A stretch of DNA of 64,000 nt from Candidatus Atribacteria bacterium UBA6251 (lineage in GTDB: Bacteria > Atribacterota > Phoenicimicrobiia > Phoenicimicrobiales > Phoenicimicrobiaceae): contig DJVR01000034.1 in NCBI GenBank assembly GCA_002441285.1, forward strand, positions 3,369-67,368, in the 5' to 3' direction. Numbering within the stretch: the stretch's first letter is position 1; the number at the start of each line of letters is the position of its first letter. Below are positions 16,789 through 62,083 of this stretch, in pieces. The notes beneath the pieces are model-generated. The model worked only from the letters and a program-made list of their open reading frames with translations. It did no database searches and was not told the DNA's origin. Both the position numbers and the translations under genes were made by a program.

Positions 16789-17190
16789 TTACCAACACCC
16801 ACGATATCTGCAAAAATGAGTTGTTTCTATATAACCGTTACTAATGATATAAACTTCTGTTTCTCCTTTTTCAAAAGTTGTAACCTCTGCTCCATCTGGT
16901 GCATCTGCAAAATAGATCCTGAAGGTGCCATTTACTTTTATATCCGGGCCAAACTGATAAGTGCCATCACCGAAATCGATAATGATTATCTTAGTATCCT
17001 TGGTAAGGATTCCCGGATCAAATTCAATAGTTACGTTATTTAAACTTACAGATCCACCCTCTTCTGCGCTTACCCACTCTTGTACCATATCTTTCTTCTC
17101 GGCAAAAACAAACGCAGTTAGAGCAAAAAGGGCAAATACAACTATGATAGAGAGTATAATATAGTGTTTCAAAGATTTATTATTTTTCAT
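16789..17190 (-). CDS. Small secreted/membrane-anchored protein of unknown function, riboswitch-controlled
   Basis: 133 aa. N-terminal signal/TM (IILSIIVVFALFALTAFVFA), a beta-rich domain, C-terminal CRYRGCW. An AGGAGGTG RBS immediately follows a GEMM-like aptamer. Confidence 0.6.
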   Translation of the reverse strand: MKNNKSLKHYIILSIIVVFALFALTAFVFAEKKDMVQEWVSAEEGGSVSLNNVTIEFDPGILTKDTKIIIIDFGDGTYQFGPDIKVNGTFRIYFADAPDGAEVTTFEKGETEVYIISNGYIETTHFCRYRGCW

Positions 17191-17194
17191 TCTT

Positions 17195-17290
17195 CACCTC
17201 CTTCGGTAATCCAGCCATCATAGCTATTAAATAGCTTTAGACCTGAGACTTTGCGTCCTACCCTTTCGGATAGTTTGCTATTATCGAGAG
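17195..17290 (-). ncRNA. c-di-GMP-I (GEMM) riboswitch candidate in the 5' UTR of the 16789-17190 gene
   Basis: Minus-strand RNA AUAGCAAACUAUCCGAAAGGGUAGGACGCAAAGUCUCAGGUCUAAAGCUAUUUAAUAGCUAUGAUGGCUGGAUUACCGAAGGAGGUG. This matches the Vc2-type consensus GGCAAACC-N-GAAA-N-GGGACGCAAAGCC-N-GGCCUAAA. The aptamer runs into the RBS. Confidence 0.7.
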
Positions 17291-17405: not shown

Positions 17406-20400
17406 TTATAATTTTATCTCAGCTAAACATTTATTTATCTCTTCAATAAATCTTTTTGTTCCTATCTCATACAATATCTTTCTTGCTTTCTTTAATTTTA
17501 AAGCAGCCTTTTTTAATTCATCCATTCCTTTCAGCATATCTCCCCATTCGTAATAGCTTTCAGCTTCATTAATTCTATCTCCAAATTTTGAATATAGTTT
17601 TATTGCTTGCTGAAAATATAGCTCAGCATCTACATAGTTTTTGCATTCCTTATATAGCCTTCCCTTTAATTTATAAATATCGGCAAAACCTAATTCGTCT
17701 TCTAATTCCTTAAATATTTTTTCTGCCTGGGAAATATAGTATTCCACTTCTTTTAATTCACTTTTTTTTAAATACTCTTCACCTAAATGAATATAATTAA
17801 TTCCTTTATTATAAATATCGCCAATTTTGTCTGCTATCTTTACACTTTCTTTTAAATAATGAATTGCTTTTTCTGAATCTCCTAAGGAAGAGTATGCAAA
17901 ACCAATATTATTCATAATATTAGAAACAACAATAATATTTTTATTCTTTTGAGCAATAGAAAGACTTTCTTGATAAGCTTCAATGGCTTTTTCCCATTTG
18001 CCTAACATATCATAATAAATACCAATGTTGTTTAAAGCCATCGCATAAACATCTAAAGCTTTTATCCTCTGAGAAAGATCAATACTTTCTTTAAGGTAAG
18101 AATATCCGGTAGAGGTATCTCCTTTAAAAATACTGGCTAATCCTATACTTTTCAAAATAATTGCCATTCTTTTTTGGTTATTCATTTCTATAGCAAGAGA
18201 AAGACTTTTTTTGAGATATTCGATTGATTTATCCCATTGTCCCATATCTCCATAAATATTTCCTAAATTAATCAAAATTAAAGATTCATTATCTTGATCT
18301 TTGATTTTCCTACTATATTTTAGAGCTTTATTAAAATTAGTTTTAGCCTCTTTTCTTTTGCCAATAACTGATTGGGAAAAAGCTAATTTATTATATATTT
18401 CTGAAAGTTTTTTTATTTGTTCATTATTCAGTCTATCTTGTGATTCTAGAATTTTAATACTATCTAAATAATAATAAATAGCATTTTTAAAAGCATATAA
18501 AAATTGAGCTTTATCTCCAGCCTTATTTAAGTAAAATAATGCTTTTTGCCAATTATCACTATTTTTAAAATGATAAGCTAATTCTTCTGATTTTGCGTCA
18601 ATCTTGGTAGAATAAATTTCTTCTATAGCTAAACCTATTTTGTTATGCAAATCTTTTCTAACCTCAAAAAGTAGGCTGTTATAAGCTATTTCTTGAATAA
18701 TTGAATGAATAAAAGCAAAATAATTTTTATGGCCAGTTGCAGGAGTAATTTCTTCAATAAACCTATAATTTTGTAATTTCTTTAGCGATTCTAATAAGAT
18801 TTTCTCTTCCTGGTTGATAACCTTTTTTAAAAGTTCTATTTCAATATTTTTTCCTAAAACTGAAGCTTGATATAATATTTCTTTTAAGGCTAAAGGAAGA
18901 AGATCAATTCTTGCGCGAGCAATACTTTGCACTGTATCCGGAATTTCAAAGTGATCAAAAACATCAGAGTATTTGCCTAATTTATCTTTTTCTACTAAAG
19001 ACCATCTTCTTTCCTCTATTCCACTAATAATTTCTTCGATAAACAAAGGGTTTCCATGGGCCATAGAAATTATCTTATCCTTCATTAAAGAAGAAATATA
19101 TTTTTCTTGGTCTAAAAAATTGATTAGCTTTTTAGATTCTTTATTTTTTAATGGTAATAATCTTATTTTTTTAACTTCAAATAAAGATATATTCTTTTTT
19201 AAAGAGTCTTGAAGACTATAAATAATTAAAACAGGATATTCTTTAATTTCTTTGGAAATTTGGGATAAAAATTCTGCAGAAGCAGTATCAATCCATTGCA
19301 TATCTTCAATAATTATAAGAAGAGGTTGTTGTATAGAGAGACTCCAGAATAATTTTTTCATAATCCCGATAAGTAAATCACTTTCTCTTTTAAATTGATT
19401 GGTTATTTTTTCTGTAAAATTAAGATTTGTCGATAAAAATCTTAAGAAATAAGAAGAAGCAAATAATAAGGAAGCATCAACCTCTTTTATCTTATTTTCT
19501 ATTTTCTTTTTAATCTCTTGAGGTTCATCTTCAAATTTTATTTGAAAAATTTTATTAAATATTTCTTTTATAATATAATATGGTTTTGATTCTTCCCAGG
19601 ATGTACAATTTGCTGATAGAAGGATGAATTTTTGGGTGTAAGAATCATTGGTAAGCTCTGAAATTAACCTTGTTTTACCTATTCCAGATTCCCCACTTAT
19701 TTCAACTATTTTTCCTCGCGATTGAAAGGAGTTTTTTAAGACTGCTTTTAAGGTTTTCAACTCTTTTTCTCTACCAATAAATTGAGTATAATATTTTCTT
19801 TTCTGCTCTGACAAAATATCTTTATTCTTTTCTCTCTTTAAAATATAAGCGGTTACTGGATTTTTCTTTCCTTTTATCTTTAATTCACGAGGTTTAGAAA
19901 ATATAAAAAAGTCTTTAATTCTTTGAAAAGTCTTTTCTCCAATTAATATACTACCAGGTGTGGATTTTTCCTGTAAACGAGAAGCCAAGTTTACCGTATC
20001 TCCTATCACCGTAAATTCTTTTCTGCAAGTAGAGCCAATTTCGCCAGAAATACATAATCCAGTATTAATCCCAATCCTTGCTTTCATACTTATTACTTTA
20101 TTTTTATTTTTTATTTTTCCGTTTTTAGCAATAGATTTCATAATCTCCAAACTTGCTCTCGCCGCTCTTTCTGGATCATTTTCATGACTAAAAGGTGTGC
20201 CAAATATAGCCATTAATCCATCACCCAAAAATTTATTAATACTCCCACCGTATTGCTCAATAATTGAAACTATAGGAGCAAAGACACTATTGATTACTTT
20301 GGTAGCCTTTTCGGGATCCATTCTTTCTGCTAAAGTGGTAAATCCATTTATATCAATAAATACTACCGTAGCTTCTCTTCTTTCGCTAGGTAGGCTTTCC

Positions 20401-20495
20401 TTTCCTTCTAATATCCTATAGGTCACCGCTTCTGGAACATAAGGTTTAAACAATTTTAATATTTTATTTTCTTGATTTTGTTTTTTCTTTTTCAT
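17406..20495 (-). CDS. Class III adenylate/guanylate cyclase domain + AAA/STAND ATPase + TPR repeats signalling protein
   Basis: 1029 aa. N-terminal CHD cyclase domain (VVFIDINGFTTLAE...FLGDGLMAIFG...RIGINTG). P-loop ISGESGIGKTRL. Long C-terminal TPR array. Confidence 0.8.
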   Translation of the reverse strand: MKKKKQNQENKILKLFKPYVPEAVTYRILEGKESLPSERREATVVFIDINGFTTLAERMDPEKATKVINSVFAPIVSIIEQYGGSINKFLGDGLMAIFGTPFSHENDPERAARASLEIMKSIAKNGKIKNKNKVISMKARIGINTGLCISGEIGSTCRKEFTVIGDTVNLASRLQEKSTPGSILIGEKTFQRIKDFFIFSKPRELKIKGKKNPVTAYILKREKNKDILSEQKRKYYTQFIGREKELKTLKAVLKNSFQSRGKIVEISGESGIGKTRLISELTNDSYTQKFILLSANCTSWEESKPYYIIKEIFNKIFQIKFEDEPQEIKKKIENKIKEVDASLLFASSYFLRFLSTNLNFTEKITNQFKRESDLLIGIMKKLFWSLSIQQPLLIIIEDMQWIDTASAEFLSQISKEIKEYPVLIIYSLQDSLKKNISLFEVKKIRLLPLKNKESKKLINFLDQEKYISSLMKDKIISMAHGNPLFIEEIISGIEERRWSLVEKDKLGKYSDVFDHFEIPDTVQSIARARIDLLPLALKEILYQASVLGKNIEIELLKKVINQEEKILLESLKKLQNYRFIEEITPATGHKNYFAFIHSIIQEIAYNSLLFEVRKDLHNKIGLAIEEIYSTKIDAKSEELAYHFKNSDNWQKALFYLNKAGDKAQFLYAFKNAIYYYLDSIKILESQDRLNNEQIKKLSEIYNKLAFSQSVIGKRKEAKTNFNKALKYSRKIKDQDNESLILINLGNIYGDMGQWDKSIEYLKKSLSLAIEMNNQKRMAIILKSIGLASIFKGDTSTGYSYLKESIDLSQRIKALDVYAMALNNIGIYYDMLGKWEKAIEAYQESLSIAQKNKNIIVVSNIMNNIGFAYSSLGDSEKAIHYLKESVKIADKIGDIYNKGINYIHLGEEYLKKSELKEVEYYISQAEKIFKELEDELGFADIYKLKGRLYKECKNYVDAELYFQQAIKLYSKFGDRINEAESYYEWGDMLKGMDELKKAALKLKKARKILYEIGTKRFIEEINKCLAEIKL

Positions 20496-34723: not shown

Positions 34724-36835
34724 TTATTCTCCTTTTCTATTTTTATCAAGATTCTTAATCTCTTTTTCTATATCTTCAATTATCGGACTGCCTTCCGGTG
34801 CTAATACTAAAGCTTCCAAAAAATATTCCAGTGCCTTGTCCGGCATTTCTTTTTTCTTATACACTATCCCTAAATTATTTAATACAATATACTTATTGTT
34901 AAAATTGGGTTCAATTTCTAAAATCTTATTCCACTGTTCGATAGTATCATCATATTTTTCTTGAGTAAAATATAGATACCCTAAATCATAATATGCCTTA
35001 GTAAATTTCGGGATAAGATAAGCGGCATACCGAAATTCTTCTTCTGCTTTTGAAAATAATCCTGCCTGGCGATAAACTAAACCTAAATTATAAAAGGTTT
35101 TGGCATCAATCCGATATCTGGTAGTCTGCAATAAAACTTCTTCAGCCTTAGTGAGATTTCCCAAATTATAATAAGTTGTGCCAAGGGCATGTAATATCCT
35201 TCCATTATAAGGATATAATGATGCGGCCTGCTCAAAATAAGATAAGGCCTCACTATAATTACCGTCCACATTGTGCCTCATACCCTTAAAATATTTTATT
35301 TCAGCAATATATGGTCTTACTGCTATTAAATTAATAGCCCATATCATAAAGACTAATACAATAATGGTCAGAGTAATTTTTATCCTTTTATTTTTTAATT
35401 TTGATTCTTTTGTTCTATTATCAGAATAAGTTTTGGGTAAATTTATCTTTCTGGCATATATTACAGTTAGTCCTAATAAAGCAAAAAAGGTTACCCCTAA
35501 TGCCGGCACATGAAAAGGAAAAGTAAACAGACAATGTATTAAAAAACAGGTAATACCCGAAACTAGACCAAAGACAATTATTTTTTCTTTGTCACTATCA
35601 TTTTCTTTCCAATAATCTATTATTAAACTATAAAATATCAGAATAATTCCGATAAATATCCCCAAACCGACTATTCCTATTTCCGCCCACATCTGCAGAT
35701 ATTCATTATGGGCCTCCCCTGCCTTTCCGGAATATTGTATATAGTAGGGATTGTTTTTTAAAAACTCTGCCTGATAGTTTAAATAATTCATTTTAAAAGT
35801 GCCAATCCCCGAACCAAATATGGGATTATCCTTAATCATTTCAAGAGTGGTCTTCCAGATTAACAGACGGGTATTGATGGAGGGGTCTTGCTCGTCAAAG
35901 GTGGATAGTGCTCTCTGGGGAACAGTTATGGCGCTTTTGTTGAGAGGATTGTCAGTGGAATAGATAATAGTAATTACCAGAAAAATTAATAAAAGTAAGG
36001 ACAGCCTTTTTTTATTTTCTTGAAATATTTTTAAAAGATTAAATTTAAAAATAATATAAATTGCTAATATTACAGTAAGACTGATGCTAATCCATATTCC
36101 CCGGCTCTGGCAAATCATTAAAGTCGCATAAAGGATAGATAATAAGAAAAAATATTTTATTTTATTTTTTTTGGTTTGCTCTAATAGAAAATAGGAAAAT
36201 ACTACCGGAAAAATCATCGCCAGGTAATTGGAAATCCAATTTTTCTGGCCAATTGTAGAAGTCAAGTTGTGTAAATCACTTAAATAGGGGTCTATACCAT
36301 AATACTGCATAAGGGTGTATATTGAGACGAGTAAGGAGATTATAAAGAATAGATAAATAAATGGATTAAAATCTTTCTTTCTATTTAGATTATTGGTTAT
36401 TAAAAAAAATATCAAAATATAAGATAAGAATATTATAAATTCCTGAAAACTTACTGCCTTTGTTTTGCTGATAAAAAGAGAAAGGAATAATACTAATGAA
36501 AACAAAATCAAAGGTAAGTCCAATTTAGTCCTTTGCAGAGAATATTTTCCGGTATTTATTATTTTCATCAAAAAAATAGCAAATAAAATTACATTGAATA
36601 GTTTAAGAATGGCTTCCTGGTTTACTCGGAAATCATAGACATATTTACTAGCAAATAAGGGAATAGTTATTAGCAATAATTGTAATAATATGGTTAATAG
36701 TTTCTGATAAATATTATCTTTTTCTATCCAGTACTTTTTCACTTTTACGCTTCTTTCGTATTTATTTAAAAATAAAAATAGCTCCAGATACAAATTTATA
36801 CCTGGAGCCATTTGCCTATTTCTACTATTTTGCAA
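34724..36835 (-). CDS. O-antigen ligase (Wzy_C)-family polytopic membrane protein with C-terminal TPR repeats; candidate pilin O-glycosyltransferase
   Basis: 703 aa. About 12 TM helices and a Wzy_C-like loop. TPR motifs in the C-terminal 250 aa. Located immediately downstream of pilA. The annotated first 20 codons overlap the pilA terminator hairpin, so the start is uncertain. Confidence 0.6.
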   Translation of the reverse strand: MQNSRNRQMAPGINLYLELFLFLNKYERSVKVKKYWIEKDNIYQKLLTILLQLLLITIPLFASKYVYDFRVNQEAILKLFNVILFAIFLMKIINTGKYSLQRTKLDLPLILFSLVLFLSLFISKTKAVSFQEFIIFLSYILIFFLITNNLNRKKDFNPFIYLFFIISLLVSIYTLMQYYGIDPYLSDLHNLTSTIGQKNWISNYLAMIFPVVFSYFLLEQTKKNKIKYFFLLSILYATLMICQSRGIWISISLTVILAIYIIFKFNLLKIFQENKKRLSLLLLIFLVITIIYSTDNPLNKSAITVPQRALSTFDEQDPSINTRLLIWKTTLEMIKDNPIFGSGIGTFKMNYLNYQAEFLKNNPYYIQYSGKAGEAHNEYLQMWAEIGIVGLGIFIGIILIFYSLIIDYWKENDSDKEKIIVFGLVSGITCFLIHCLFTFPFHVPALGVTFFALLGLTVIYARKINLPKTYSDNRTKESKLKNKRIKITLTIIVLVFMIWAINLIAVRPYIAEIKYFKGMRHNVDGNYSEALSYFEQAASLYPYNGRILHALGTTYYNLGNLTKAEEVLLQTTRYRIDAKTFYNLGLVYRQAGLFSKAEEEFRYAAYLIPKFTKAYYDLGYLYFTQEKYDDTIEQWNKILEIEPNFNNKYIVLNNLGIVYKKKEMPDKALEYFLEALVLAPEGSPIIEDIEKEIKNLDKNRKGE
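36768..36808 (-). terminator. Intrinsic terminator/attenuator after pilA
   Basis: Hairpin GCTCCAG...CTGGAGC followed by UAUUUUUAUUUU on the minus-strand RNA. Confidence 0.6.
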
Positions 36836-36839
36836 AAAA

Positions 36840-37262
36840 CTATTTCCTCGCAGTTAAAGGATTATCATATACATTACCATTATCATTGGTATTTCTTCCA
36901 TTAATAGTAAAAACATTATTACTATAAGTAACCCATACTTCTCCAGCAACGGCAGCATCCTCACTTGCTGGGCAAGTAGTTTGTGCGTTTCCAGTTACAG
37001 GATTATATATACCAGCATTTGCAAATACTACAGATGATAGTTTATCAGGTGTATCAATATCGGTTACTGGTCTATCAGCTAATTCTGCTTGAATCAAAGT
37101 TTGAATTGTTCCTGCATTGGCTTTAACTATCGCATTTTTTGCTTTATCCTGCTGGCCAGTATAAAGTCTTAATCCTAAGAGTGCTAATACACCGATGATA
37201 GCTACTACGACCATCAATTCGATTAAGGTAAAACCTTTTTTATTCTTTCTAAAATTATACAT
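36840..37262 (-). CDS. pilA: Major type IV pilin PilA
   Basis: 140 aa. Canonical class III signal KKG|FTLIELMVVVAIIGVLA. Short pilin with a C-terminal Cys. Confidence 0.9.
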   Translation of the reverse strand: MYNFRKNKKGFTLIELMVVVAIIGVLALLGLRLYTGQQDKAKNAIVKANAGTIQTLIQAELADRPVTDIDTPDKLSSVVFANAGIYNPVTGNAQTTCPASEDAAVAGEVWVTYSNNVFTINGRNTNDNGNVYDNPLTARK

Positions 37263-37404
37263 TTTTTTATTTCCTCCATTTATTTTAGTTTGTTGCTTAG
37301 CTTATAGGTTAGGAATTAGAAGTAGGTTAAAAAATTATTCCAAAAACTCTTGAATTATTCACCAATTCCTAATAATTTAATAATAATTAAAAATATTTTT
37401 AAAA

Positions 37405-37500
37405 ATCGGTAGTTAGACAGTCATAACCCTTTTTTTGAAGAGATTAAGTTATTAGGTTTTAGACCCTAACTTTGCGCCCCATTCTTTCAAATGGTTTACC
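37405..37500 (-). ncRNA. c-di-GMP-I (GEMM) riboswitch candidate, proximal copy upstream of pilA
   Basis: Minus-strand RNA GGUAAACCAUUUGAAAGAAUGGGGCGCAAAGUUAGGGUCUAAAACC... aligns with Vc2 GGCAAACCAUUCGAAAGAGUGGGACGCAAAGCCUCCGGCCUAAACC. Confidence 0.7.
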
Positions 37501-37597
37501 TTTCTCAATTTTTTTATGACCCTGGATTTGATCACCTCCTGTTTTTCTTTTCATCTGCTAGTACATTTTTGTGTCTTATTTAAATAAATAAAAGGAA

Positions 37598-37700
37598 AGT
37601 CGGTAGTTTGGCAGTCATAGCAATCATAGTAATAATTACTTTAGACCCATAACTTTGCGCCCCATCTTTTCAGATAGTTTGCCTTTTTCAACTTTTAAAA
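37598..37700 (-). ncRNA. c-di-GMP-I (GEMM) riboswitch candidate, distal copy upstream of pilA (tandem)
   Basis: Minus-strand RNA AAGGCAAACUAUCUGAAAAGAUGGGGCGCAAAGUUAUGGGUCUAAAG..., the same consensus. About 200 nt upstream of the proximal copy. Confidence 0.7.
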
Positions 37701-37794
37701 GATTACTTATTCTATTTTCTATTTATATTATTCCATATTTTAAAAAATTTTAGACTAAAGAAGAATTTTTTTTACAATCTACAATATATGAAAA

Positions 37795-37844
37795 AAAGAA
37801 GAAAAAATCTATACTTAAAATTCTTTTTAATTTTAAGTATAGAT
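37795..37844 (-). terminator. Intrinsic terminator after the sigma/unknown-protein operon
   Basis: Hairpin ATCTATACTTAAAATT / AATTTTAAGTATAGAT followed by a U-run on the minus-strand RNA. Confidence 0.7.
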
Positions 37845-37879
37845 CTTTGAGCTGTAAATTAAGGATTTAGCCTTTTAAA

Positions 37880-38332
37880 TCAGGTATTTTCATAAACAAA
37901 GATTTGAAAATCATCACTGTTAAATCTTTGAAATTTTACACTATTTACCGCAGGTTTAACTACAAAGACTCTTTCATTATTATCATGAGGGTCAATTGGG
38001 TAAGCAAAAAAACCTTTTCTCTCTGGATTAAAACTATGGGTAGAACCATAAAAATTTTCGCCATCTTTAAAGATGATGACAATTTTACGTTGAGTAGGAA
38101 TAGGCTGAGGTTGTCCTTCGAAGGTTCTTACTTTTTGATAATCTTTATTCCCTTGATAATCTTTAACAAAAAATACTGCTTTTAATTCATTTACATCTAC
38201 TTCAACTAGTTTATCTCCGTATTCTTCCAAAGGATGAAGGTGAAAAATATCTTTGTTGGGATTAAAGTCAGTAGACCAACCTTTGATGATGGAGCCATCC
38301 TTGTATTTTACTACCATTTTGTTGGGTATCAT
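37880..38332 (-). CDS. Uncharacterized protein with internal tandem duplication (paralog B)
   Basis: 150 aa. Two ~65-aa repeats of the pattern VVKYKDGSIIKGW...F.P / IVIIFKDGENFYG...FFAYPIDP. Paralogous to 38391-38816. Confidence 0.6.
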   Translation of the reverse strand: MIPNKMVVKYKDGSIIKGWSTDFNPNKDIFHLHPLEEYGDKLVEVDVNELKAVFFVKDYQGNKDYQKVRTFEGQPQPIPTQRKIVIIFKDGENFYGSTHSFNPERKGFFAYPIDPHDNNERVFVVKPAVNSVKFQRFNSDDFQIFVYENT

Positions 38333-38390
38333 CTTAATCTCCTTGTCTCCTCTCTAGAATAGAAAGGTTAAAATAAATCCTTTCCTGGTC

Positions 38391-38816
38391 TTAAAAATCG
38401 TTTTCATTAGTTTTTATTTTTACAATAGCTTTACGAACTACAAAAATGCGTTCATTATTATCTTCCGGGTCAAGGGGAAAGACAAAAAATCCATCTTCAT
38501 ATCTTCCAAAATTATAACAGGTGCCATAGATCTCTTCCCCATCTTCAAAAAAAATAACTACTTTTTTTTGACTGGGTGTTACCTTGAATCTTTCATCATC
38601 AAAGTTTCTTACTTTCTGATAATCTTTATTACCGAAAAAATCTTTAACAAAAAAGATTGCTTTTAGGGGAGCAAATACGAGATTAAGAGTCTCCTTTGAG
38701 CTATATTCCATCAAGGGGTAAAGGGTAAAGAAATGACGTTCCGGACTAAAATCTTCTACCCAACCTTTAATAATTTCTCCATTTTTATATTTTACTACTA
38801 CCTTCTTTTTCAACAT
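38391..38816 (-). CDS. Uncharacterized protein with internal tandem duplication (paralog A)
   Basis: 141 aa. Same two-repeat architecture (VVVKYKNGEIIKGW... / VVIFFEDGEEIYG...FFVFPLDP). Confidence 0.6.
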   Translation of the reverse strand: MLKKKVVVKYKNGEIIKGWVEDFSPERHFFTLYPLMEYSSKETLNLVFAPLKAIFFVKDFFGNKDYQKVRNFDDERFKVTPSQKKVVIFFEDGEEIYGTCYNFGRYEDGFFVFPLDPEDNNERIFVVRKAIVKIKTNENDF

Positions 38817-38826
38817 AGCAAATTTC

Positions 38827-39543
38827 CTAAAGCTTAATATTTTTTAATTCCTTTCTTAAGGACTTAATGGCTTCTTTTTTAATGCGAGAAACCTGCTTCT
38901 GAGAAAGATCTAGAGCCTGAGCGGTTTTGGTCTGAGTTAAATCTTTAAGGAAGATATAATTAACCACTTTACGCTGGATATCTTTTAATTTGTTTAGAGC
39001 CATTTCTAAGGTAATTAAATCTTCTATAGGTAATTTAAAGCTCTGATAATGATCATTCTTTATTTTAGAAATAACCGGTAAATCCCGGTAGTCATACATT
39101 CTATTTTCCTGGTCAATAGAAACAGTATGCACTGCTTCCCTAGCCTTTAAAATCTCTTTTACTCCTTCTTCGGTAAGATTGAATTGAGCAGCAATTTGTT
39201 TAAGAGAAGGCATTTGGTTATTTTCTTTTTTGTATTTAAGAATATACTGATCGATTTTTTTATTTAATTCCATTACCCAGTGAGGAATTTTTATAGTTTG
39301 ATGCTTGTCCCGAATATAATGACGAATCTCTCCCGAGATAAGCCAGGAGGCATAAGTTTCAAATTTTACCTTCCGGGCTGGATCATAAAGGTTTAAGGCA
39401 TTAATTAATCCAATATAACCTACCTGCTCTAAATCCTCCAAAGGTTCTCCAGAATTGATAAATTTAGCTGCAATACTACGCACTAAAGGTTTATATTTTA
39501 AAATTATTTCATCATTTATTTCTTGAGTAGTTGACATTACCAC
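38827..39543 (-). CDS. Group-3 sigma-70-family sigma factor (FliA/SigB/SigF-like), paralog 2
   Basis: 238 aa. Region 2 (DLEQVGYIGLINALNLYDP...FETYASWLISGEIRHYIRD) and region 4 HTH (LTQTKTAQALDLSQKQVSRIKKEAI). Confidence 0.8.
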   Translation of the reverse strand: MVMSTTQEINDEIILKYKPLVRSIAAKFINSGEPLEDLEQVGYIGLINALNLYDPARKVKFETYASWLISGEIRHYIRDKHQTIKIPHWVMELNKKIDQYILKYKKENNQMPSLKQIAAQFNLTEEGVKEILKAREAVHTVSIDQENRMYDYRDLPVISKIKNDHYQSFKLPIEDLITLEMALNKLKDIQRKVVNYIFLKDLTQTKTAQALDLSQKQVSRIKKEAIKSLRKELKNIKL

Positions 39544-39594
39544 AAACTCATCATCCTTTTTTAAATTTACCCTTAAAAAAAGATTTTTTGGGGG

Positions 39595-40290
39595 TTATTC
39601 TTTTTCTAATTCTTCCTTTAAATCTTCCAGAGTCCTTTTTTTAATTCGAGAAACTTGCCGTTGACTCAAACCCAGTTTCTGCGCTACTTTGGTTTCGGTT
39701 AAATCCATTTCAAAAAGATAATAAATTACTTTTTTTTGAATATTTTTTAATTTTTGCACTGCCATCTGTAAGGTGATAATATCTTCAATAGGCAATCTAA
39801 AAGTTTGATAGTTTGTACTTTTGATACTACCAATTTTAGGAAAACTATCAGTTAATTCCACATTTCCATCTTTTTGGTCTAGAGAAATAGTCTTTGCAAG
39901 ATTATAAATTTTAAGAATTTCTTTTATTCCTTCTTCCGCAATATTAAATTTTTTTGATATTTCGCTTAAAGAAGGATCAGTTTTATTTTCTTCTTGATAA
40001 AAGAAGATATATTCATTAATTCTTTTATTCAACTTTCTCATCCATTCTGGTATTTTTATAGCTGATTTTTTATCTCTTAGATAATGTTGTATTTCACCAG
40101 AGATAAGCCAGGAAGCATAAGTCTCAAATTTAACCTTCTTAGCAGGATTATAAAGATTATAAGCATTAATCAGACCAATATAACCTACCTGTTCTAAATC
40201 TTCCAGAGGTTCTCCTGTATATTTAAATTTAGCGGCAATTCTTTTAACCAATGGTCGGTATTTTTCAATCTGTTTATCATTTATTTTCAC
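39595..40290 (-). CDS. Group-3 sigma-70-family sigma factor (FliA/SigB/SigF-like), paralog 1
   Basis: 231 aa. Same region 2/region 4 signatures as 38827-39543 (YASWLISGEIQHYLRD, LSQRQVSRIKKRTL). Confidence 0.8.
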   Translation of the reverse strand: MKINDKQIEKYRPLVKRIAAKFKYTGEPLEDLEQVGYIGLINAYNLYNPAKKVKFETYASWLISGEIQHYLRDKKSAIKIPEWMRKLNKRINEYIFFYQEENKTDPSLSEISKKFNIAEEGIKEILKIYNLAKTISLDQKDGNVELTDSFPKIGSIKSTNYQTFRLPIEDIITLQMAVQKLKNIQKKVIYYLFEMDLTETKVAQKLGLSQRQVSRIKKRTLEDLKEELEKE

Positions 40291-40404: not shown

Positions 40405-41616
40405 TTATTTTATTAAATTAACCATATTAAAGATGGGTAAATACATCGCAATAATCATTACTCCAACTGTACCGCCAATGACTAACATCATCAAAGGTTC
40501 AATAATGGAAGTTAATCTTTCCACACTGCGATCTACTTCTTCGTCATAGAATTTAGAGACATTGATCAACATTTCTTCTAACTCTCCACTCTCTTCACCT
40601 ACTAGAATCATCTGGGTAACCATAGGTGGAAATACACCGCTGGCAGCCAAAGGAGAGGAAATACTCTGACCTTCTTTTATTCTGGTTTTAGCTCCCAATA
40701 CTGCCTTAGAGATAACCAGATTACCGATAGCATTAGAAGAAACGGTTAAGGCTTCAATGATAGGAACACCGCTCTTGATTAAGGTACCTAAGATACGGGA
40801 AAACCTAGAAATAGCACTTTTACGGTTAATATCCCCTATAATAGGAGCATTTAACTTAAATCGATCAAAGTTTTGTCTTCCATTAGGAGTTTTAATATAG
40901 GCATATAAGCCAAAACTTAGAGCAATGATTAAACCAAAAAATAAATACCAGAATTTTCTAAACAAAATGGTTAGGGTTACAAAAAAATTAGTAAGAGCGG
41001 GAAGCTCTCCTCCAAACTGAGCGAATATTCCTACAAATTGTGGCAGGACAAAGGTAAGCATAAAGATAGCCATCAGAACAGCTGCTCCAATGATAAAGCT
41101 AGGATAACTCATTGCGGATCTGATCTTCTGCCTTAGGGCAAATTCTTTTTCCATTAAATCTGCAATCTTATTTAAAATTTCATCCAGAACCCCTCCTACC
41201 TCACCAGCTTTTATCATACTGATATATAATTCGGAAAATACGTTGGGGTGCTTAGCCATAGCATCAGCCAAGGTTGAACCACCTTCTACGTCAGTTTTAA
41301 CTGTGTTGATAATTCTGGACAAGGCTTTATTTTCTACTTGCTCAGTTAATATATTTAAAGAATTTACTAAAGTCAAACCAGCATTAACCATAGTAGCAAA
41401 CTGACGGTAAAAAATAGTTAAATCCCGAAATTTGATCCGATTAAAGAGAGATATCTCAACAGATAGAAATGTACTTTTTCTTTTTTCTTGAATGGAAGAA
41501 ATAAAATAATTCATTTCCCTTAGACGAGAGACTACGGCTGATTTGTTTTCTCCCTCCATTGTTCCGGTAAAAATTTTACCTGATCTATCTCTAACTTTAT
41601 ACACAAAAGTAGCCAT
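40405..41616 (-). CDS. pilC: Type IV pilus platform protein PilC (GspF family)
   Basis: 403 aa. Two T2SS-F repeats, three TM helices, N-terminus MATFVYKVRDRSGK. Confidence 0.9.
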   Translation of the reverse strand: MATFVYKVRDRSGKIFTGTMEGENKSAVVSRLREMNYFISSIQEKRKSTFLSVEISLFNRIKFRDLTIFYRQFATMVNAGLTLVNSLNILTEQVENKALSRIINTVKTDVEGGSTLADAMAKHPNVFSELYISMIKAGEVGGVLDEILNKIADLMEKEFALRQKIRSAMSYPSFIIGAAVLMAIFMLTFVLPQFVGIFAQFGGELPALTNFFVTLTILFRKFWYLFFGLIIALSFGLYAYIKTPNGRQNFDRFKLNAPIIGDINRKSAISRFSRILGTLIKSGVPIIEALTVSSNAIGNLVISKAVLGAKTRIKEGQSISSPLAASGVFPPMVTQMILVGEESGELEEMLINVSKFYDEEVDRSVERLTSIIEPLMMLVIGGTVGVMIIAMYLPIFNMVNLIK

Positions 41617-41832: not shown

Positions 41833-42978
41833 TTATACTTTGATAATTTCTTTTAGAACATTGATTATTTTTGGGTCATATTTTTTCCCGGTAAAAGAGA
41901 AAAATCTTTTTAATGCTTCTTTGTCGGGTAAAGAATTTTCTACATAATTATTCTTGCTATTATTATAAAGTATATTAGTAAAATCTTCAACCACAGCTAT
42001 AATCCGAGAAGCAAGAGGGATTTCTTCTCCTTTTAGCCCCTTGGGATAACCTGATCCGTCATAATTTTCGTGATGATGGAGGATAATGGGTGCTAAATCT
42101 TTGAATAAATGTATCTGTTTAAGCATATTTGCTCCAATTATAGGATGCATACTTATTTCTTTTTGAATTATAGGAGTTAGGTTTTCTCTTGGTCTTGGTT
42201 TGAAGCTAAGATCTATTTTATGGTTAGTTTTTAATTTACCAATATTATGTAAAAGTGCGGCATAATATAAGTTATTATATTCTTTCCCGACTATTCCTAA
42301 TTTATTACCAACCTGGGTAGCTAATCGTGCTACTTGCATAAAATAGCCTTTGGGACCAAGAGGGTCACTCTCTATGGCTTGAATCAATATCTCCATAATA
42401 TTTACAAAATAATTATTTAAATCTCTGATAATATTAGCATTTCTTAAAACGACTACAGCTTGATTAGCAAAAGAGGTTAAGGTCTGTTCATCATTTTTAT
42501 CGAAAAGTTTATTCTCTTTTTTATTGACTACCTCCATTACCCCTAATATTTCTTTCTCTAATATTAAAGGCACACAAATAATTGATTTAGTTTTAAATTT
42601 TGTTTTTTCATCAAATATTTTCTTCCATCGCTTATCTTTGGATACATCATTAACTATCAGAGAAATACCATTTTCAGCAACCCATCCAGCAATTCCTTCT
42701 CCAACTTTAACTTTATAGCCTCTTATTTCCTTGCTCTTTTTACCTAAACTTGCTTGAAAAGATAATTCTCTTTTCTCTTGGTCTAACAGCAATATAGAAG
42801 CAGCTTCTCCTTCTACGATTATAGTGGCATAATTAATTATCTTGTTTAACAAAATATCTAAATCTATAGTATGGGTTAAATCAAAAGTTATTTTATTTAA
42901 GGCATCTAATTGTAATAACTTCTTTTTGAGTTCACTAAATTTGTTATCTTCAACTATATTATTTTTATCATCAATCAT
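41833..42978 (-). CDS. GAF-domain + HD-GYP c-di-GMP phosphodiesterase
   Basis: 381 aa. N-terminal GAF. C-terminal HD-GYP signatures (LLHNIGK, HHHENYDGSGYPKGL). Confidence 0.8.
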   Translation of the reverse strand: MIDDKNNIVEDNKFSELKKKLLQLDALNKITFDLTHTIDLDILLNKIINYATIIVEGEAASILLLDQEKRELSFQASLGKKSKEIRGYKVKVGEGIAGWVAENGISLIVNDVSKDKRWKKIFDEKTKFKTKSIICVPLILEKEILGVMEVVNKKENKLFDKNDEQTLTSFANQAVVVLRNANIIRDLNNYFVNIMEILIQAIESDPLGPKGYFMQVARLATQVGNKLGIVGKEYNNLYYAALLHNIGKLKTNHKIDLSFKPRPRENLTPIIQKEISMHPIIGANMLKQIHLFKDLAPIILHHHENYDGSGYPKGLKGEEIPLASRIIAVVEDFTNILYNNSKNNYVENSLPDKEALKRFFSFTGKKYDPKIINVLKEIIKV

Positions 42979-43000: not shown

Positions 43001-44752
43001 TTAGGAGGTAACTACTCTTAAAACTTCGCTTATGGTAGTAATCCCTGCACAAACTTTTTTTATACCATCCTCCTTTAAGGTACACATACCTTCTTCAAGT
43101 GCAACTTCCTTAAGTTTTTTATTGTTTACGTTCTTAGTAATCAATTCTCTTATAGTGTCAGTGATAATCATTAACTCGAAGAGGGCAATTCTACCCTTAT
43201 ATCCTGTGTGCTTACAATTAGAACACCCTTCACCTTGGTATAAAGTTATCTCCGAACTTCTTATCTCATAGTCATTCATTATTTCTTGTATTTCGGGAGT
43301 TACTTCTAATACTTTTTTACATTGGGGGCAGATTCTTCTTACCAATCTTTGCGCAATAATACCAATTACTGAAGAAGAGATTAGAAATGGTTCAATTCCC
43401 ATATCGATTAATCTTATCACTGAACCGGGAGCATCGTTAGTATGTAGAGTACTTAGCACTAAATGCCCGGTAAGTGCTGCCTGGACTGCAATTTCGGCAG
43501 TTTCTTTATCTCTAATCTCTCCTACTAGCATAATATCAGGGTCCTGACGCAAAAAACTTCTTAAACCTGCCGCAAAAGTAAGTCCTATTTTTGGTTTAGC
43601 TTGAATCTGACTAATTCCCTTTAATCTATATTCTACTGGGTCTTCAATAGTCATAATCTTTTTTTCACTGGAATTCAATAAATTTAAAGCGGTATATAGG
43701 GTAGTAGATTTTCCACTTCCAGTAGGACCAGTAACCAGAATAATACCATTTGGCTTACTAATTAAAGAAACAAATTTGGGAAGAATATCTTTGGACAAAC
43801 CTAAAGAGTCTAAGTCTAATAAAATGCTCGCTGGATCTAAGATTCTTAATACTACACTCTCTCCATTTACAGTAGGGATAGTAGAAACTCTAATATTTAT
43901 ATTTCTTCCCCCCACTTTAACTTGAATTCTACCATCTTGCGGTAATCTTCTTTCGGCAATATCTAAATCAGACATTATTTTTATTCTAGAAATAACAGCT
44001 AAATGTAAATTTTTGGGTAGGGTCATTACATCGATTAATATCCCATCAATGCGATAACGCACTCTAAGGCTTTCTTCTCCAAATAATTCTATATGAATAT
44101 CACTGGCTTTCTCTTTAACTGCTCTCAAAATAATCAGATTAACCAGGGCAATTACTGGCGCTTCTTCGCTTTTACTTACTTCCGCAATATCACTAATTTC
44201 TTTTTCATCTTCTTTTAAAACGGTAACTTGCATATTTTCCAGTTTACCAATTACCTGATCCCATTCTTCCGTAATTCCATATACTTCATCTAAAGCTCGA
44301 TTAATATCTTCACCAAAAGCTAATACCGAATCAATATCATATCCTAATCTAATTTTTAATTCATCATGCGCAAAAACATCTAAAGGGTTTGCCATAGCTA
44401 CCAGTAATCTGTCTCTCTCTTTATCAATAGCAATAAGCTGATGTCTTCTAGACATCTCTTCAGGAATTAAGACTACTATGGTAGGATCAATATTTATTTC
44501 ATTTAAATTTACGTATTTTACCCCAATTTCATCAGCTAAAGCAAGCATCATTTCGTCTTTTTTAAGTATACCCAAATCAATAATTACCTTTTGTAATTCA
44601 TTACCACTATTTTTTTGAATTTTAATAATTCTATCTAATTGCTCATCATTGATTAAATTTCTCTTATATAAGATATCTAACAGGAAATTGCCCGTGATAC
44701 TTTTACTTATGTTTTTTTTCATTCTTCCTCTCCTAATGAATGCAAAGTGCAA
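43001..44752 (-). CDS. pilB: Type IV pilus assembly ATPase PilB (GspE family)
   Basis: 583 aa. N-terminal GSPII_E_N domains, Walker A GPTGSGKSTTLY, tetracysteine CPQC...CSNC. Confidence 0.9.
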   Translation of the reverse strand: MHFAFIRRGRMKKNISKSITGNFLLDILYKRNLINDEQLDRIIKIQKNSGNELQKVIIDLGILKKDEMMLALADEIGVKYVNLNEINIDPTIVVLIPEEMSRRHQLIAIDKERDRLLVAMANPLDVFAHDELKIRLGYDIDSVLAFGEDINRALDEVYGITEEWDQVIGKLENMQVTVLKEDEKEISDIAEVSKSEEAPVIALVNLIILRAVKEKASDIHIELFGEESLRVRYRIDGILIDVMTLPKNLHLAVISRIKIMSDLDIAERRLPQDGRIQVKVGGRNINIRVSTIPTVNGESVVLRILDPASILLDLDSLGLSKDILPKFVSLISKPNGIILVTGPTGSGKSTTLYTALNLLNSSEKKIMTIEDPVEYRLKGISQIQAKPKIGLTFAAGLRSFLRQDPDIMLVGEIRDKETAEIAVQAALTGHLVLSTLHTNDAPGSVIRLIDMGIEPFLISSSVIGIIAQRLVRRICPQCKKVLEVTPEIQEIMNDYEIRSSEITLYQGEGCSNCKHTGYKGRIALFELMIITDTIRELITKNVNNKKLKEVALEEGMCTLKEDGIKKVCAGITTISEVLRVVTS

Positions 44753-51471: not shown

Positions 51472-53187
51472 TTAACCTGCTACTCTTAGAACTTCTTCTA
51501 TAGTAGTAATCCCTTGAAGAGCTTTCTCTAAACCACTTTCCCTCAAGGTTTTCATCCCTTTTTTAATGGATTCTTCCTTGATTATGTCACTGGAAGTTTT
51601 GGATAGAATTAGTGAGCGTATCCTCTCATCTAGCTCCAGGATTTCATAGATAGAAGTTCTACCATAATAACCAGTATCTTTACATAAGGGACAACCTGCT
51701 CCTCTATATAGCTTTACCTGGTTATTCTGATCCAAATCTAATTCTTTTAATATCTCTGGAGGAGGAGGATATTCTTCTTTGCATTTTTCACAAATCACTC
51801 TCACCAATCTTTGGGCTAATACCCCAATTACTGAGGAAGAAATGAGGAAAGGTTCAATGCGCATATCTACCAACCTGGTTAATGCACTGGCTGCATCATT
51901 GGTATGTAAAGTACTTAAAACCAGGTGCCCCGTTAAGGCTGCCTGAATAGCTATCTCAGCAGTTTCTCGATCTCTTATCTCTCCAACCATAACAATATCT
52001 GGATCCTGTCTTAAAATTGATCTTAAGGCATTAGCAAAGTTTAAATTTATCTTCGGTAGAATTTGAATCTGATTAATACGGTTCAGCTTATATTCAACTG
52101 GATCTTCAATGGTAATGATATTTTTCTGTTTATAGTCCATTCTGTTTAAAGCCGCATATAAGGTTGTAGTTTTGCCACTTCCAGTAGGCCCAGTAATTAA
52201 AATAATCCCATAAGATTTGTTAATCATATTTTTAAATTGATTAAGTTGAGGAGTGGAAAAACCAAGTTGTTCTAACTCGATTAAACCTTTACTTTTATCC
52301 AGTAATCGTAATACTGTTTTTTCACCATAAATGGTGGGGATAGTAGAAACTCTAATATCCACCTCTTTACTACCAAATTGAACCTGGAAACCACCATCCT
52401 GGGGAAGCCGCCTTTCTGCAATATCCATCTTGGATAATATCTTTATTCGAGAAACAATAGCGGATTTTACTTTGAAAGGTAAATTTCTGATATCATGTAA
52501 GATTCCATCAATACGAAATCTTACCAGTATCCCTTTTTCATTAGGTTCAAGATGGATATCACTAGCCCGGTCTTTTACCCCTTGCACAATTAACATATTT
52601 ACTAATTGAATTACCGGTGCTTCTCTACTGATAGCTTCTAATTCTCGGAGGTCTTCTTCCCTCTCTTCCTCTTTAAGGATTACCTCGGTATCTAACTTAT
52701 TAAGAATATCATCATATTCTCCTAATTTATAATAACTATTAATGGTATTAATGATATCCTCTTCATCAGATAATACACATTTGACTTTATTTTTCTTAGT
52801 AATGCCTTTTACAAAATCAATGGCATGCACATCAAAGGGATTGGCCATAGCGATTACTAATTCATCTTTATCTACGCTGAGTGGAATTAATTTAAATTGT
52901 AGGGCAATTTTCTCTGGAATAACAGAAATTATTTCCGGATCTATGACCAGTTTGGTTAGATCTACATACTCAGTTTCGTAGATATGCTGCAAGACTTGAT
53001 AAAGCTCTTCCTTAGTTAAAGCTCCCATCTCAATTAAAATCTCCCCTATCTTTTTATTATTTCCTTTTTGTTGAGATTTGAGAGCTTTTTCTAATTGTTG
53101 AGTGGTAATAATTCCTTGGCCAACCAATATTTCTCCCAATTTTTTATTGGAATATTCTTTTCTTATTCTTTCCATAATCATCACCAA
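51472..53187 (-). CDS. Second GspE/PilB-family secretion ATPase (paralog)
   Basis: 571 aa. GSPII_E_N domain, Walker A GPTGSGKTTTLY, CEKC...CPLC. Confidence 0.85.
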   Translation of the reverse strand: MVMIMERIRKEYSNKKLGEILVGQGIITTQQLEKALKSQQKGNNKKIGEILIEMGALTKEELYQVLQHIYETEYVDLTKLVIDPEIISVIPEKIALQFKLIPLSVDKDELVIAMANPFDVHAIDFVKGITKKNKVKCVLSDEEDIINTINSYYKLGEYDDILNKLDTEVILKEEEREEDLRELEAISREAPVIQLVNMLIVQGVKDRASDIHLEPNEKGILVRFRIDGILHDIRNLPFKVKSAIVSRIKILSKMDIAERRLPQDGGFQVQFGSKEVDIRVSTIPTIYGEKTVLRLLDKSKGLIELEQLGFSTPQLNQFKNMINKSYGIILITGPTGSGKTTTLYAALNRMDYKQKNIITIEDPVEYKLNRINQIQILPKINLNFANALRSILRQDPDIVMVGEIRDRETAEIAIQAALTGHLVLSTLHTNDAASALTRLVDMRIEPFLISSSVIGVLAQRLVRVICEKCKEEYPPPPEILKELDLDQNNQVKLYRGAGCPLCKDTGYYGRTSIYEILELDERIRSLILSKTSSDIIKEESIKKGMKTLRESGLEKALQGITTIEEVLRVAG

Positions 53188-56119: not shown

Positions 56120-56340
56120 AAAATTATCCTGCTTAAAATGAAAAAATAAAACCCCGCTATGCCGTGTGCTTTAGGTTTTGATACCTGTCCTCAAACAGGT
56201 GGGTATCTACCTAAATGCTTGATGTTTCCGTGTTAACTTAAGCAGTTAACATTTGGTATTTACCAACCTCGCCAGAGGGGTAATGCACCTTAGGCCTACA
56301 TTCCACATTTAGAGATCGATTCCCTATTTAAAATTTGTTG
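56120..56340 (-). ncRNA. Candidate structured ncRNA (possibly 6S RNA/SsrS) upstream of MTHFS
   Basis: A 450-bp gene-free interval, locally GC-richer than its surroundings. Multiple stable hairpins on the minus strand (GUUAACUGCUUAAGUUAAC; GCAUUUAGGUAGAUACC...GGUAUCAAAACCUAAAGC). 6S RNA is frequently encoded immediately upstream of the MTHFS (ygfA) gene. No conserved primary sequence could be verified by eye. Confidence 0.25.
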
Positions 56341-56493
56341 GCTCAAAACTTCATTAGACATCACGAACATAGCAGGGTAGCTTTATTTTGATCTGCTCTA
56401 ATATTAGCATATTTTTATTCTTTTTTCAATAATCCTGGCTATTACACTTGCTCATGAAAAGTAAAAATCATATTATTTAAAAATTATGATAAT

Positions 56494-61018: not shown

Positions 61019-62083
61019 TTAGTAGTTATAATTATAATGTTCTTTTTCAAATACTTTTTTATCAATTGCTTTTCTTAAGGCATCTTCTCGACTAATCTTT
61101 CCCTCCATTAACAAGTCTTTCAAGGATTGATCCAGGCTTTGCATACCATCTTTTTTACTAATTTGAATAATTGATTGAATCTGATAGGTCTTATTTTCTC
61201 TAATCAAGTTTTTTATAGCTGGAGTAGCAAACATTATCTCCAAGGCTGGGGCTCTTCCTTTTTCATCTAGAGTAGGCAAAAGGGTTTGAGCTACTACACC
61301 TAATAAAGCACCAGCTAATTGCATTCTTACTTGATTCTGTTGATGAGGAGGAAATACGTCAATTATTCTATCGATAGTATCTGATACACTGATAGTATGT
61401 AAAGTAGAAAATACTAAATGACCAGTTTCAGCAGCAGTAAGAGCCATAGAAATAGTTTCAAGATCCCTCATCTCTCCTACCAGTATTACATCAGGGTCCT
61501 CTCTTAATGCACTACGTAAAGCATCAGAAAAGCTTTTAGTATGAGCCCCTATTTCTCTTTGAGTAATTAAACAGTTTTTATGTTGATGAATAAATTCAAT
61601 AGGGTCTTCAATGGTAATAATATTATCATAACGTTGAGTATTAATTATATCTATTAAGGTGGCTAGGGTGGTAGATTTTCCACTTCCCGTAGGTCCAGTG
61701 ATTAAAACAAATCCTTTATCTTTTTCACAAAAATTAGCTAGAACAGAAGGTAATCCTAATTCAGATAGAGATTTAATCTTTTCCGGAATTAATCGAAAAG
61801 CTCCTCCTTCTCCTCTCCGGTGCTTAAATAAATTTACTCGAAAACGGGCAACACTCTCTAATTCATATGACAAATCTAATTCCCCATTAGTTTCGAAATC
61901 TTTTTTTTGATTTTCATCCAAAATACTATAAATTAAACGGTGCACCTCTTCTTTAGTTAATTCGGGGAACTTCAATTTATTTAGTTTTCCATTAATTCTT
62001 ATTACTGGGGGTATACCAACATTAAGATGTAAATCAGAAGCATCATTTTCTTTGGCAAGAGTTAATAAATCATTTAAAATCAT
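61019..62083 (-). CDS. pilT: Twitching-motility retraction ATPase PilT
   Basis: 354 aa. DASDLHL, Walker A GPTGSGKSTTLA, PilT AIRNLIRE motif. Confidence 0.9.
   Translation of the reverse strand: MILNDLLTLAKENDASDLHLNVGIPPVIRINGKLNKLKFPELTKEEVHRLIYSILDENQKKDFETNGELDLSYELESVARFRVNLFKHRRGEGGAFRLIPEKIKSLSELGLPSVLANFCEKDKGFVLITGPTGSGKSTTLATLIDIINTQRYDNIITIEDPIEFIHQHKNCLITQREIGAHTKSFSDALRSALREDPDVILVGEMRDLETISMALTAAETGHLVFSTLHTISVSDTIDRIIDVFPPHQQNQVRMQLAGALLGVVAQTLLPTLDEKGRAPALEIMFATPAIKNLIRENKTYQIQSIIQISKKDGMQSLDQSLKDLLMEGKISREDALRKAIDKKVFEKEHYNYNY

Follow-up and report, generated by a model that had tools for sequence, protein, structure and literature searches.

Tandem c-di-GMP-I riboswitch aptamers in the predicted leader of the major pilin gene pilA of an uncultured Atribacterota bacterium: a proposed serial OFF switch

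The pilA locus and the pilus gene cluster

The stretch of Candidatus Atribacteria bacterium UBA6251 DNA analysed here (64 kb; hereafter the window) carries a type IV pilus gene cluster, the major pilin gene of which, pilA (36840-37262, minus strand), encodes a 140-aa type IV prepilin with a GFTLIE motif. The N-terminal methylation motif of the product was recognized by Pfam (N_methyl, 2.1e-10) and by NCBIfam (IV_pilin_GFxxxE). The Shine-Dalgarno (SD) sequence of pilA, GGAGG, is located at 37273-37277 on the same strand, and relatives keep AAGGAGG 7-10 nt before the ATG. A terminator scan identified an intrinsic terminator with a 17-pair stem and a T-run 3' of the gene (36766-36813, minus strand), which indicates that pilA is a one-gene unit. 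The identical pilin together with the identical leader was found in metagenome contigs only.

Genes located 5' of pilA on the minus strand encode PilB with an MshEN domain (43001-44752), a protein with GAF and HD-GYP-type domains (41833-42978), PilC (40405-41616) and two SigB/SigF/SigG-like sigma factors (39595-40290 and 38827-39543), and two DUF6982 genes lie between the sigma factor genes and a hairpin at 37791-37844. The preliminary description had placed a terminator at 37795-37844, and one was indeed recovered there: an A/U-rich 20-bp stem at 37844-37807 (minus strand; RNAfold, -19.4 kcal/mol) is followed by UUUUUUCUUCUUUUUUU, a U-rich tail that extends to about 37791, and this structure closes the upstream operon of sigma factor and DUF6982 genes. 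A simple terminator scan that needs three G-C pairs made no call at this hairpin, which has too few of them.

The GAF and HD-GYP-type protein, described earlier as an adjoining phosphodiesterase, does adjoin the pilus genes and keeps the HHExxDGxGYP motif, but its HD dyad reads HN (LLHNIGK), and its sequence would suit a degenerate enzyme or a sensor of c-di-GMP as an alternative to an active phosphodiesterase. Multiple retraction ATPases had also been assigned to the locus; two PilT/PilU-family ATPases are encoded (61019-62083 and 62987-63982, minus strand), but about 24 kb away. A stand-alone 157-aa MshEN protein is encoded between these two ATPase genes (62125-62598, minus strand) and a second MshEN-bearing ATPase of the PilB/GspE type at 51472-53187 (minus strand), which brings the MshEN domains in the 64-kb window to three. 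No GGDEF motif is encoded in the 64-kb window.

Sigma factor genes of the SigB/F/G-like type and DUF6982 genes lie inside the pilus cluster not only in the window (37880-40290, minus strand) but also in two related loci, L006 (11292-12465) and L008 (1248-3757). Their copy numbers match, with two of each in the window and in L008 and one of each in L006, which suggests that DUF6982 is a partner of these sigma factors, perhaps an anti-sigma factor; NCBIfam and the PDB sequence and solved-structure search returned no match for it. Directly 3' of pilA, and syntenic in relatives, is a gene (34724-36835, minus strand) whose Wzy_C, O-antigen ligase-like product carries TPR repeats at the C terminus and may O-glycosylate the pilin. 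The TTG listed as the start of this gene overlaps the terminator of pilA, and the true start is probably further downstream. Genes for PilD, minor pilins, PilM, PilO and the PilQ secretin follow in minus-strand order.

Identity, ligand and fold of the two aptamers

The whole 64-kb window was scanned on both strands against all Rfam families at their curated gathering thresholds. Two matches to RF01051 (c-di-GMP-I; gathering score 35) were obtained on the minus strand, at 37599-37693 (aptamer 1; 76.8 bits, E 2.4e-13) and at 37405-37510 (aptamer 2; 60.4 bits, E 2.5e-9), and both are full-length, covering model positions 1-87 of 87. A more permissive scan of 37200-37900 returned the same two matches and nothing else, related clan families scoring lower. 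The preliminary description, which had proposed two Vc2-type GEMM elements on the sense strand of pilA and expected two RF01051 matches above the gathering threshold, is thus borne out; the motif that it quoted, GG(U/C)AAAC...GAAA...GGGGCGCAAAGUUA(U)GGGUCUAAA, was found as written in the sequence, and its dimensions (about 95 nt each, 200 nt apart) are close to those measured, 95 and 106 nt with starts separated by 183 nt. The two aptamers are separated by 88 nt, end to start, with no gene between them, and two full-length aptamers of one class within a single predicted leader make up the arrangement of a tandem riboswitch. With a covariance model of our own, aptamer 1 scored 131.4 bits and aptamer 2, despite being held out of the seed, 75.4 bits.

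The bases of the ligand pocket are canonical in both aptamers, with G, A and C at the positions that we take, with the help of the Rfam alignment, to be equivalent to G20, A47 and C92 of Vc2. The G20 and C92 equivalents are located at 37683 and 37603 in riboswitch 1 and at 37500 and 37409 in riboswitch 2 (minus strand). In an alignment of 76 related aptamers from the clade, the G20 equivalent is G in 73, the A47 equivalent is A in all 76 and the C92 equivalent is C in 75. The role of the G/A selectivity position has been confirmed (PMC9481103). The signature of the GEMM-Ib (c-GAMP) class is absent from both pilA-leader aptamers, which have G and not A at the G20 equivalent, and since both are canonical at the pocket bases the predicted ligand is c-di-GMP. 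By their sequence, both elements appear to be genuine c-di-GMP-I aptamers on the sense strand of pilA, and both are predicted to bind the ligand.

A third aptamer of the c-di-GMP-I fold was found elsewhere in the window (17202-17289, minus strand, 84 bits) and has A instead of G at the G20 equivalent, which, judged from the sequence, is a signature of c-GAMP-sensing or promiscuous GEMM-Ib aptamers. Its 3' end runs into the SD sequence (ACCGAAGGAGGUGAAGAAUG) of a gene for a 133-aa signal-peptide protein (16789-17190) that had no Pfam match, and a gene with adenylate/guanylate cyclase, AAA and TPR domains (17406-20495) is located just upstream. This aptamer looks like a translational switch, and it may respond to a different ligand. 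The window also contains a 6S RNA (56147-56381, minus strand, 97.2 bits) with a 63-nt insertion in the terminal region relative to the Rfam model.

The aptamers fold as three-way junctions, and the helix that closes each junction, P1, is weak, consisting of a 4-bp core and A-U pairs. A hairpin with a GNRA tetraloop, GAAA in both window aptamers, stands beside the longer P2; P2 of aptamer 2 has one deletion and one non-standard pair relative to RF01051. Insertions in the aptamers of relatives are confined to the distal P2 loop, a distribution compatible with an intact tetraloop receptor. G+C-rich palindromic repeats (for example gtcattgcgagg...gaagcaatc and gtcattcccgcg..gcgggaat) occur in many distal P2 loops and spacers of relatives (L008, at 7440-7560 and 7690-7770, and the leaders of L094, L105, L125, L135, L153, L181 and L188); they appear to be small mobile repeats that are tolerated only where the aptamer fold allows.

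P1, which is absent from the Rfam model, was added to our own model. It begins directly 3' of the ligand-pairing C; an A-run followed by GUUG forms the 5' strand, with C(G/A)(A/G)(C/U) and then a U-run on the 3' side. With P1 included, riboswitch 1 extends over 37596-37696 and riboswitch 2 over 37401-37515 (minus strand); AAAAGUUG at 37696-37689 pairs with CGAC plus UUU at 37602-37596 in the former, and AAAAAAAUUG at 37515-37506 pairs with CGAUUUUU at 37408-37401 in the latter. In the alignment of 76 aptamers, which was fitted to our own model and is therefore support and not proof, standard pairs occupy 98.0% of the cells over 29 pairs, and two-sided changes were found at 20 of the 29 pairs, compared with 8.5 +/- 1.4 in shuffles and 4-9 when the partners were slid. 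P1 itself is paired in 98.9% of cells. One of its positions is G-C in 51 aptamers, G-U in 18, A-U in four and C-G in one, two others alternate between U-G and U-A, and P1 of the two window aptamers differs by a compensated change from G-C to A-U. Folding of the whole leader gave a z-score of -0.53, no better than shuffles, the global minimum free energy being uninformative in this A/U-rich RNA.

Promoter, leader and conservation among relatives

A promoter-like block, GTCTAA-N14-TGGAAT, is located 5' of aptamer 1 on the minus strand (37730-37755, with GTCTAA at 37755-37750 and TGGAAT at 37735-37730); its 16-mer occurs once in the window and the block is conserved in relatives. We take it to resemble a sigma-B/F-type promoter, the sigma-B consensus being GTTTAA-N12-15-GGGTAT, and a sigma-B-like promoter block would fit the SigB/F/G-like factors encoded next door. 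The block is kept in L004, L006 and L008, relatives retrieved by their PilC, a search in which the leader played no part, and the block shared 5' of aptamer 1 in these relatives reads GTCTAA-N14-GGGAATAATATAAATAGAA. Further relatives were metagenome contigs fished with the promoter 18-mer and then searched with our own model, all from one closely related clade. Conservation of the 18-mer itself is circular in this set, as it served as bait, but GTCTAA was not part of the bait and was found at the fixed distance in 51 of 52 aptamer-linked leader clusters as against nine of 58 occurrences of the 18-mer without an aptamer, which supports a promoter 5' of aptamer 1.

The earlier claim that the aptamers belong to a long pilA leader accords with this conserved block 5' of aptamer 1 on the pilA sense strand and with the terminator hairpin that precedes the block. 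We infer from the sequence a transcription start between the block and aptamer 1, so that both aptamers most likely lie within the leader. We also considered an additional promoter 3' of aptamer 2: a TGGAATAAT at about 37340 resembles the -10 block found 5' of aptamer 1, but it is absent from all relatives and is probably a chance match, although an internal start is conceivable. Also between aptamer 2 and the SD sequence, UUAGGAAUU...AAUUCCUAA (37309-37372, minus strand) can pair in a 9-11-bp stem that encloses a smaller hairpin; in relatives, the stretch from aptamer 2 to the pilA SD sequence is highly variable in length, at 47-317 nt, and is often made up of repeated ACCGG-rich units.

PilC of the window is 78-79% identical to PilC of Atribacterota/Caldatribacteriota metagenome-assembled genomes and 59-65% identical to that of other Atribacterota. 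Of the loci found through PilC, L008 has two RF01051 matches directly before the pilA orthologue, L006 has one, and L004 has one at a contig end. No aptamer was found in the DNA fetched for the more distant PilC loci (L009-L019, 59-65% identical), several contigs of which end before the expected place. The layout of promoter, two aptamers and pilin ATG was found in 32 leaders (about 25 clusters at 95% identity), that of L008 among them, whereas six leaders have one aptamer before the pilin.

The same promoter with one aptamer precedes non-pilin genes in about 13 leaders. In each of 13 related contigs (L083, L092, L097, L113, L121, L126, L129, L139, L150, L156, L180, L187 and L191), the promoter block, a single c-di-GMP-I aptamer and a U-tract stand before a surface-protein gene, the products being either lipoproteins (about 420 aa) or larger secreted proteins (760-930 aa). 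From these sequences, this looks like a regulon of surface proteins under c-di-GMP riboswitches that share one promoter type. Some relatives have two successive pilin genes, each with its own promoter block (L102, at 3388 and 4314; L142, at 1755 and 2681; L100, at 955; L124, at 646). The first leader of such a pair is short or lacks an aptamer and only the second carries riboswitches, which implies that the pilin paralogues are controlled differently.

The spacer between the aptamers contains an SD-like sequence, AGGAGGUGAUC (37530-37540, minus strand), which occurs once in the window and is not followed by a usable start codon. Most tandem leaders keep AGGAGGUGA or AAGGAAGUGA at the same relative place, and a perfect anti-16S AGGAGGUGAUC (AAGGAAGUGAUU in one subgroup) is present about 25 nt 5' of aptamer 2 in L006, L008, L088, L160 and others. 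This motif could be a ribosome-binding stabilizer of the mRNA or a relic of a fused leader. Two peptides were considered and rejected: translation from the conserved AGGAGGUGAU would find no start codon at a usable distance, the GUG overlapping the SD sequence, and a 31-aa open reading frame (37459-37554) placed by a gene caller on the identical metagenome contigs overlaps aptamer 2, has no SD sequence and has an ATG that is not conserved.

Expression platform and proposed direction of switching

Helix P1 of aptamer 1 is followed directly by a U-rich tract, UUUCCUUUUAUUUAUUU (37582-37598, minus strand), with nine U in the 12 nt after CGAC, which is proposed as the first termination site. In first or single aptamers, nine to 11 of the 12 nt after P1 are U in 48 of 48 cases, while the background of at least nine U in 12 nt is 0.45% in the window; the tract of the window's own aptamer 1 (UUUCCUUUUAUU) is the weakest of this class. 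Aptamer 2 is followed by a stretch of U5, A5UA and U5 (37386-37405, minus strand), the first U-run of which doubles as the 3' strand of P1; its U-run is short and largely matched by its own A-run, and it is proposed as a second, weaker termination site. Second aptamers (n = 21) have five to nine U in the 12 nt after CGAU.

No alternative hairpin abutting the U-tracts and no separate terminator hairpin was found in the leader. The simple terminator scan, with its threshold of three G-C pairs, made no call at the P1/U-tract sites either. Six tandem leaders have their pilin ATG 47-52 nt from the end of aptamer 2, too close for a separate terminator to fit between. Moreover, in four non-pilin leaders (L121, L126, L180 and L187) the SD sequence stands directly after the U-tract, and in such compact relatives, which consist of aptamer, U8, SD sequence and AUG, no other element is available as a platform. 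When the RNA was cut at CGAY, mimicking a U-tract that is still inside the polymerase, folding programs, in which the ligand is not modelled, gave the P1 core a probability of 0.05-0.2. In many relatives the 5' strand of P1 can be held by an upstream palindrome, AACUUUUAAAAGUU, which would then serve as an anti-terminator.

In GEMM-I aptamers, P1 forms solely when the ligand is present (PMC9262584). This ligand dependence, a U-tract adjoining P1 and the lack of any other hairpin lead us to propose an OFF switch. The leader would be transcribed from the conserved sigma-B/F-like promoter, about 35-40 nt 5' of aptamer 1. Binding of c-di-GMP would lock P1, whereby the whole aptamer takes on the part that a hairpin plays in intrinsic termination, and RNA polymerase would halt in the U-tract right after P1. 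Without ligand, the 4-bp core of P1 would be too slow to form and the polymerase would read through. Both sites would have to be passed, making read-through the product of two, and a rise in c-di-GMP would then repress pilin synthesis more tightly and more steeply through two switches in series. We consider this whole reading, in which the aptamer serves as terminator, the tandem sharpens repression of the pilin and the direction is deduced from the leader's architecture, to have slightly better than an even chance of being correct. The direction agrees with C. difficile class-I switches, which are uniformly OFF (PMC6200980). Counting against the reading as a whole, P1 has only its 4-bp core and A-U pairs and so differs greatly from the G+C-rich stem of a canonical terminator.

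The steep or digital response of pilin expression that had been suggested is a reasonable inference by analogy with published tandem systems. The c-di-GMP-I class is the most numerous class of tandem riboswitches, 347 doublets and 12 triplets being known (PMC9481103). Control becomes more digital when c-di-GMP-I switches are arranged in tandem (PMC4759541, PMC9481103), as was shown for one triplet (PMC4759541).

It is also conceivable, although unlikely in our estimate, that the same two riboswitches are ON switches in which c-di-GMP increases pilin expression, by averting termination or by some other route. The published examples that are pilin-associated or tandem, namely the C. difficile pilA1 riboswitch, the tandem class-I Bc3-5 and Geobacter pilM, are ON switches (PMC6200980, PMC4759541, PMC9262584) and speak against the OFF direction. 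The MshEN c-di-GMP-binding domains in PilB and in the second PilB-like ATPase suggest that c-di-GMP favours piliation; elsewhere the MshEN domain of PilB activates pilus assembly on c-di-GMP, and an OFF switch on the pilin would, by this analogy, act oppositely. Furthermore, the 3' strand of aptamer 1 can pair with the 5' strand of aptamer 2 in some relatives, which provides alternative folds. An ON switch, however, needs a terminator hairpin with its 5' half over the aptamer 3' strands and its 3' half downstream, and no such partner was found; the U-tract starts immediately after the 4-nt core of P1; and the coupling helix between the aptamers is not supported for the window, where 0.0 pairs are expected (0.4-8.7 in relatives).

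A further explanation, which we find more doubtful still, is that one aptamer works and the other is a drifting duplicate or has a role in RNA stability or folding, the response being no sharper than that of a single switch. Aptamer 2 has the lower score (60.4 against 76.8 bits), the P2 deletion, the non-standard pair and the weaker U-run; a single aptamer stands before the pilin in L006, L151, L199 and L202, and aptamer 1 is truncated, with its 3' half lost (82-89 nt, 34-42 bits), in L085, L131, L145, L189 and L197. These single-aptamer derivatives of both kinds indicate that each copy can be dispensable. Both window aptamers, however, are full-length and above the gathering score and have the three pocket bases and P1, and the two-aptamer state is the commonest, found in 32 of 41 pilin leaders.

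That the U-tracts are pause or protein-binding sites, with the output exerted through Rho, RNase or translation and possibly through the spacer AGGAGGUGAU, is improbable: as a terminator stem P1 is weak, and termination does not account for the conserved anti-16S spacer motif, which has no start codon, but the pilA SD sequence is at least 120 nt from aptamer 2 in the window and has no complementarity to the aptamer strands, the compact relatives leave no other element, and the universal U-tract directly after P1 has the geometry of an intrinsic terminator.

The serial OFF switch proposed here shares features with several characterized systems. Like Bc3-5 of Bacillus thuringiensis (PMC4759541) and the tandems of PMC9481103, it combines several complete class-I aptamers with a surface or adhesion gene downstream. 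In those tandems each aptamer has its own platform; here the candidates for such platforms are the U-tracts, with nine to 11 U in 12 nt for the aptamer-1 class and five to nine in 12 for the aptamer-2 class. Bc3-5 is ON, and its terminator is a separate element further downstream, in competition with the C92, P1 and P3 strands, whereas here P1 abuts the U-tract and OFF is predicted; in addition, the present tandem comes from an uncultured member of the Atribacterota and has the major pilin as its target. Cdi-2-4, upstream of C. difficile pilA1 (PMC6200980), is likewise a c-di-GMP riboswitch in the leader of a major type IV pilin gene and acts on transcription read-through, the level predicted here, but it is a single ON switch of class II, which has an unrelated fold, in contrast to the two class-I aptamers and predicted OFF direction of the present leader.

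Cd1 of C. difficile flgB (PMC9262584, PMC6200980) is a class-I switch that causes premature termination when ligand-bound, as is predicted here. The platform of Cd1, however, is long and includes both a distinct terminator (T+H) and an antiterminator, and no P1 is detectable, whereas here P1 is the only helix beside the U-tract and a dozen nucleotides make up the platform. The GEMM-Ib switch of Geobacter metallireducens pilM (PMC9262584) also places a GEMM-I fold before a type IV pilus gene, and its P1 forms solely on ligand binding (PMC9262584), which is the behaviour proposed here for P1; it differs in having A at the selectivity position, sensing c-GAMP and being ON, while both pilA aptamers have G. 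A separate terminator hairpin is present in all of the characterized class-I switches compared (Cd1, Bc3-5 and pilM), and the minimal platform proposed here, with the aptamer itself serving as terminator hairpin, is possibly unusual.

We also advance, tentatively and with less confidence than the OFF switch, a broader reading in which the aptamer is its own platform: a class-I c-di-GMP sensor of about 105 nt, with a ligand-locked P1 and a U-tract as the whole terminator and neither a terminator nor an antiterminator hairpin besides, would be used repeatedly in this Atribacterota clade behind a shared sigma-B/F-like promoter and would form a circuit with the MshEN ATPase. Such a self-contained circuit would place two of these modules in series before the pilin gene and one before each of several surface-protein genes, with the matching sigma factors and the HD-GYP-type protein encoded in the cluster; c-di-GMP would repress the supply of pilin and possibly activate the MshEN-bearing assembly ATPase.

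The class of element, its tandem arrangement and riboswitch control of a pilin are already known, and it is the phylum that is new; none of the literature searched links Atribacterota with c-di-GMP riboswitches. Atribacterota are abundant in anoxic sediments and digesters and are almost entirely uncultured. If the compact combination of aptamer and U-tract terminates as proposed, it would amount to a natural OFF switch of minimal size that could be of use in designing reporters, and it would be a counter-example to the pattern of C. difficile, in which c-di-GMP turns pili on. In conclusion, the locus points to the use by Atribacterota of predicted c-di-GMP RNA sensors on the genes of their major pilin and of further surface proteins, together with a predicted regulon that has one common promoter type.
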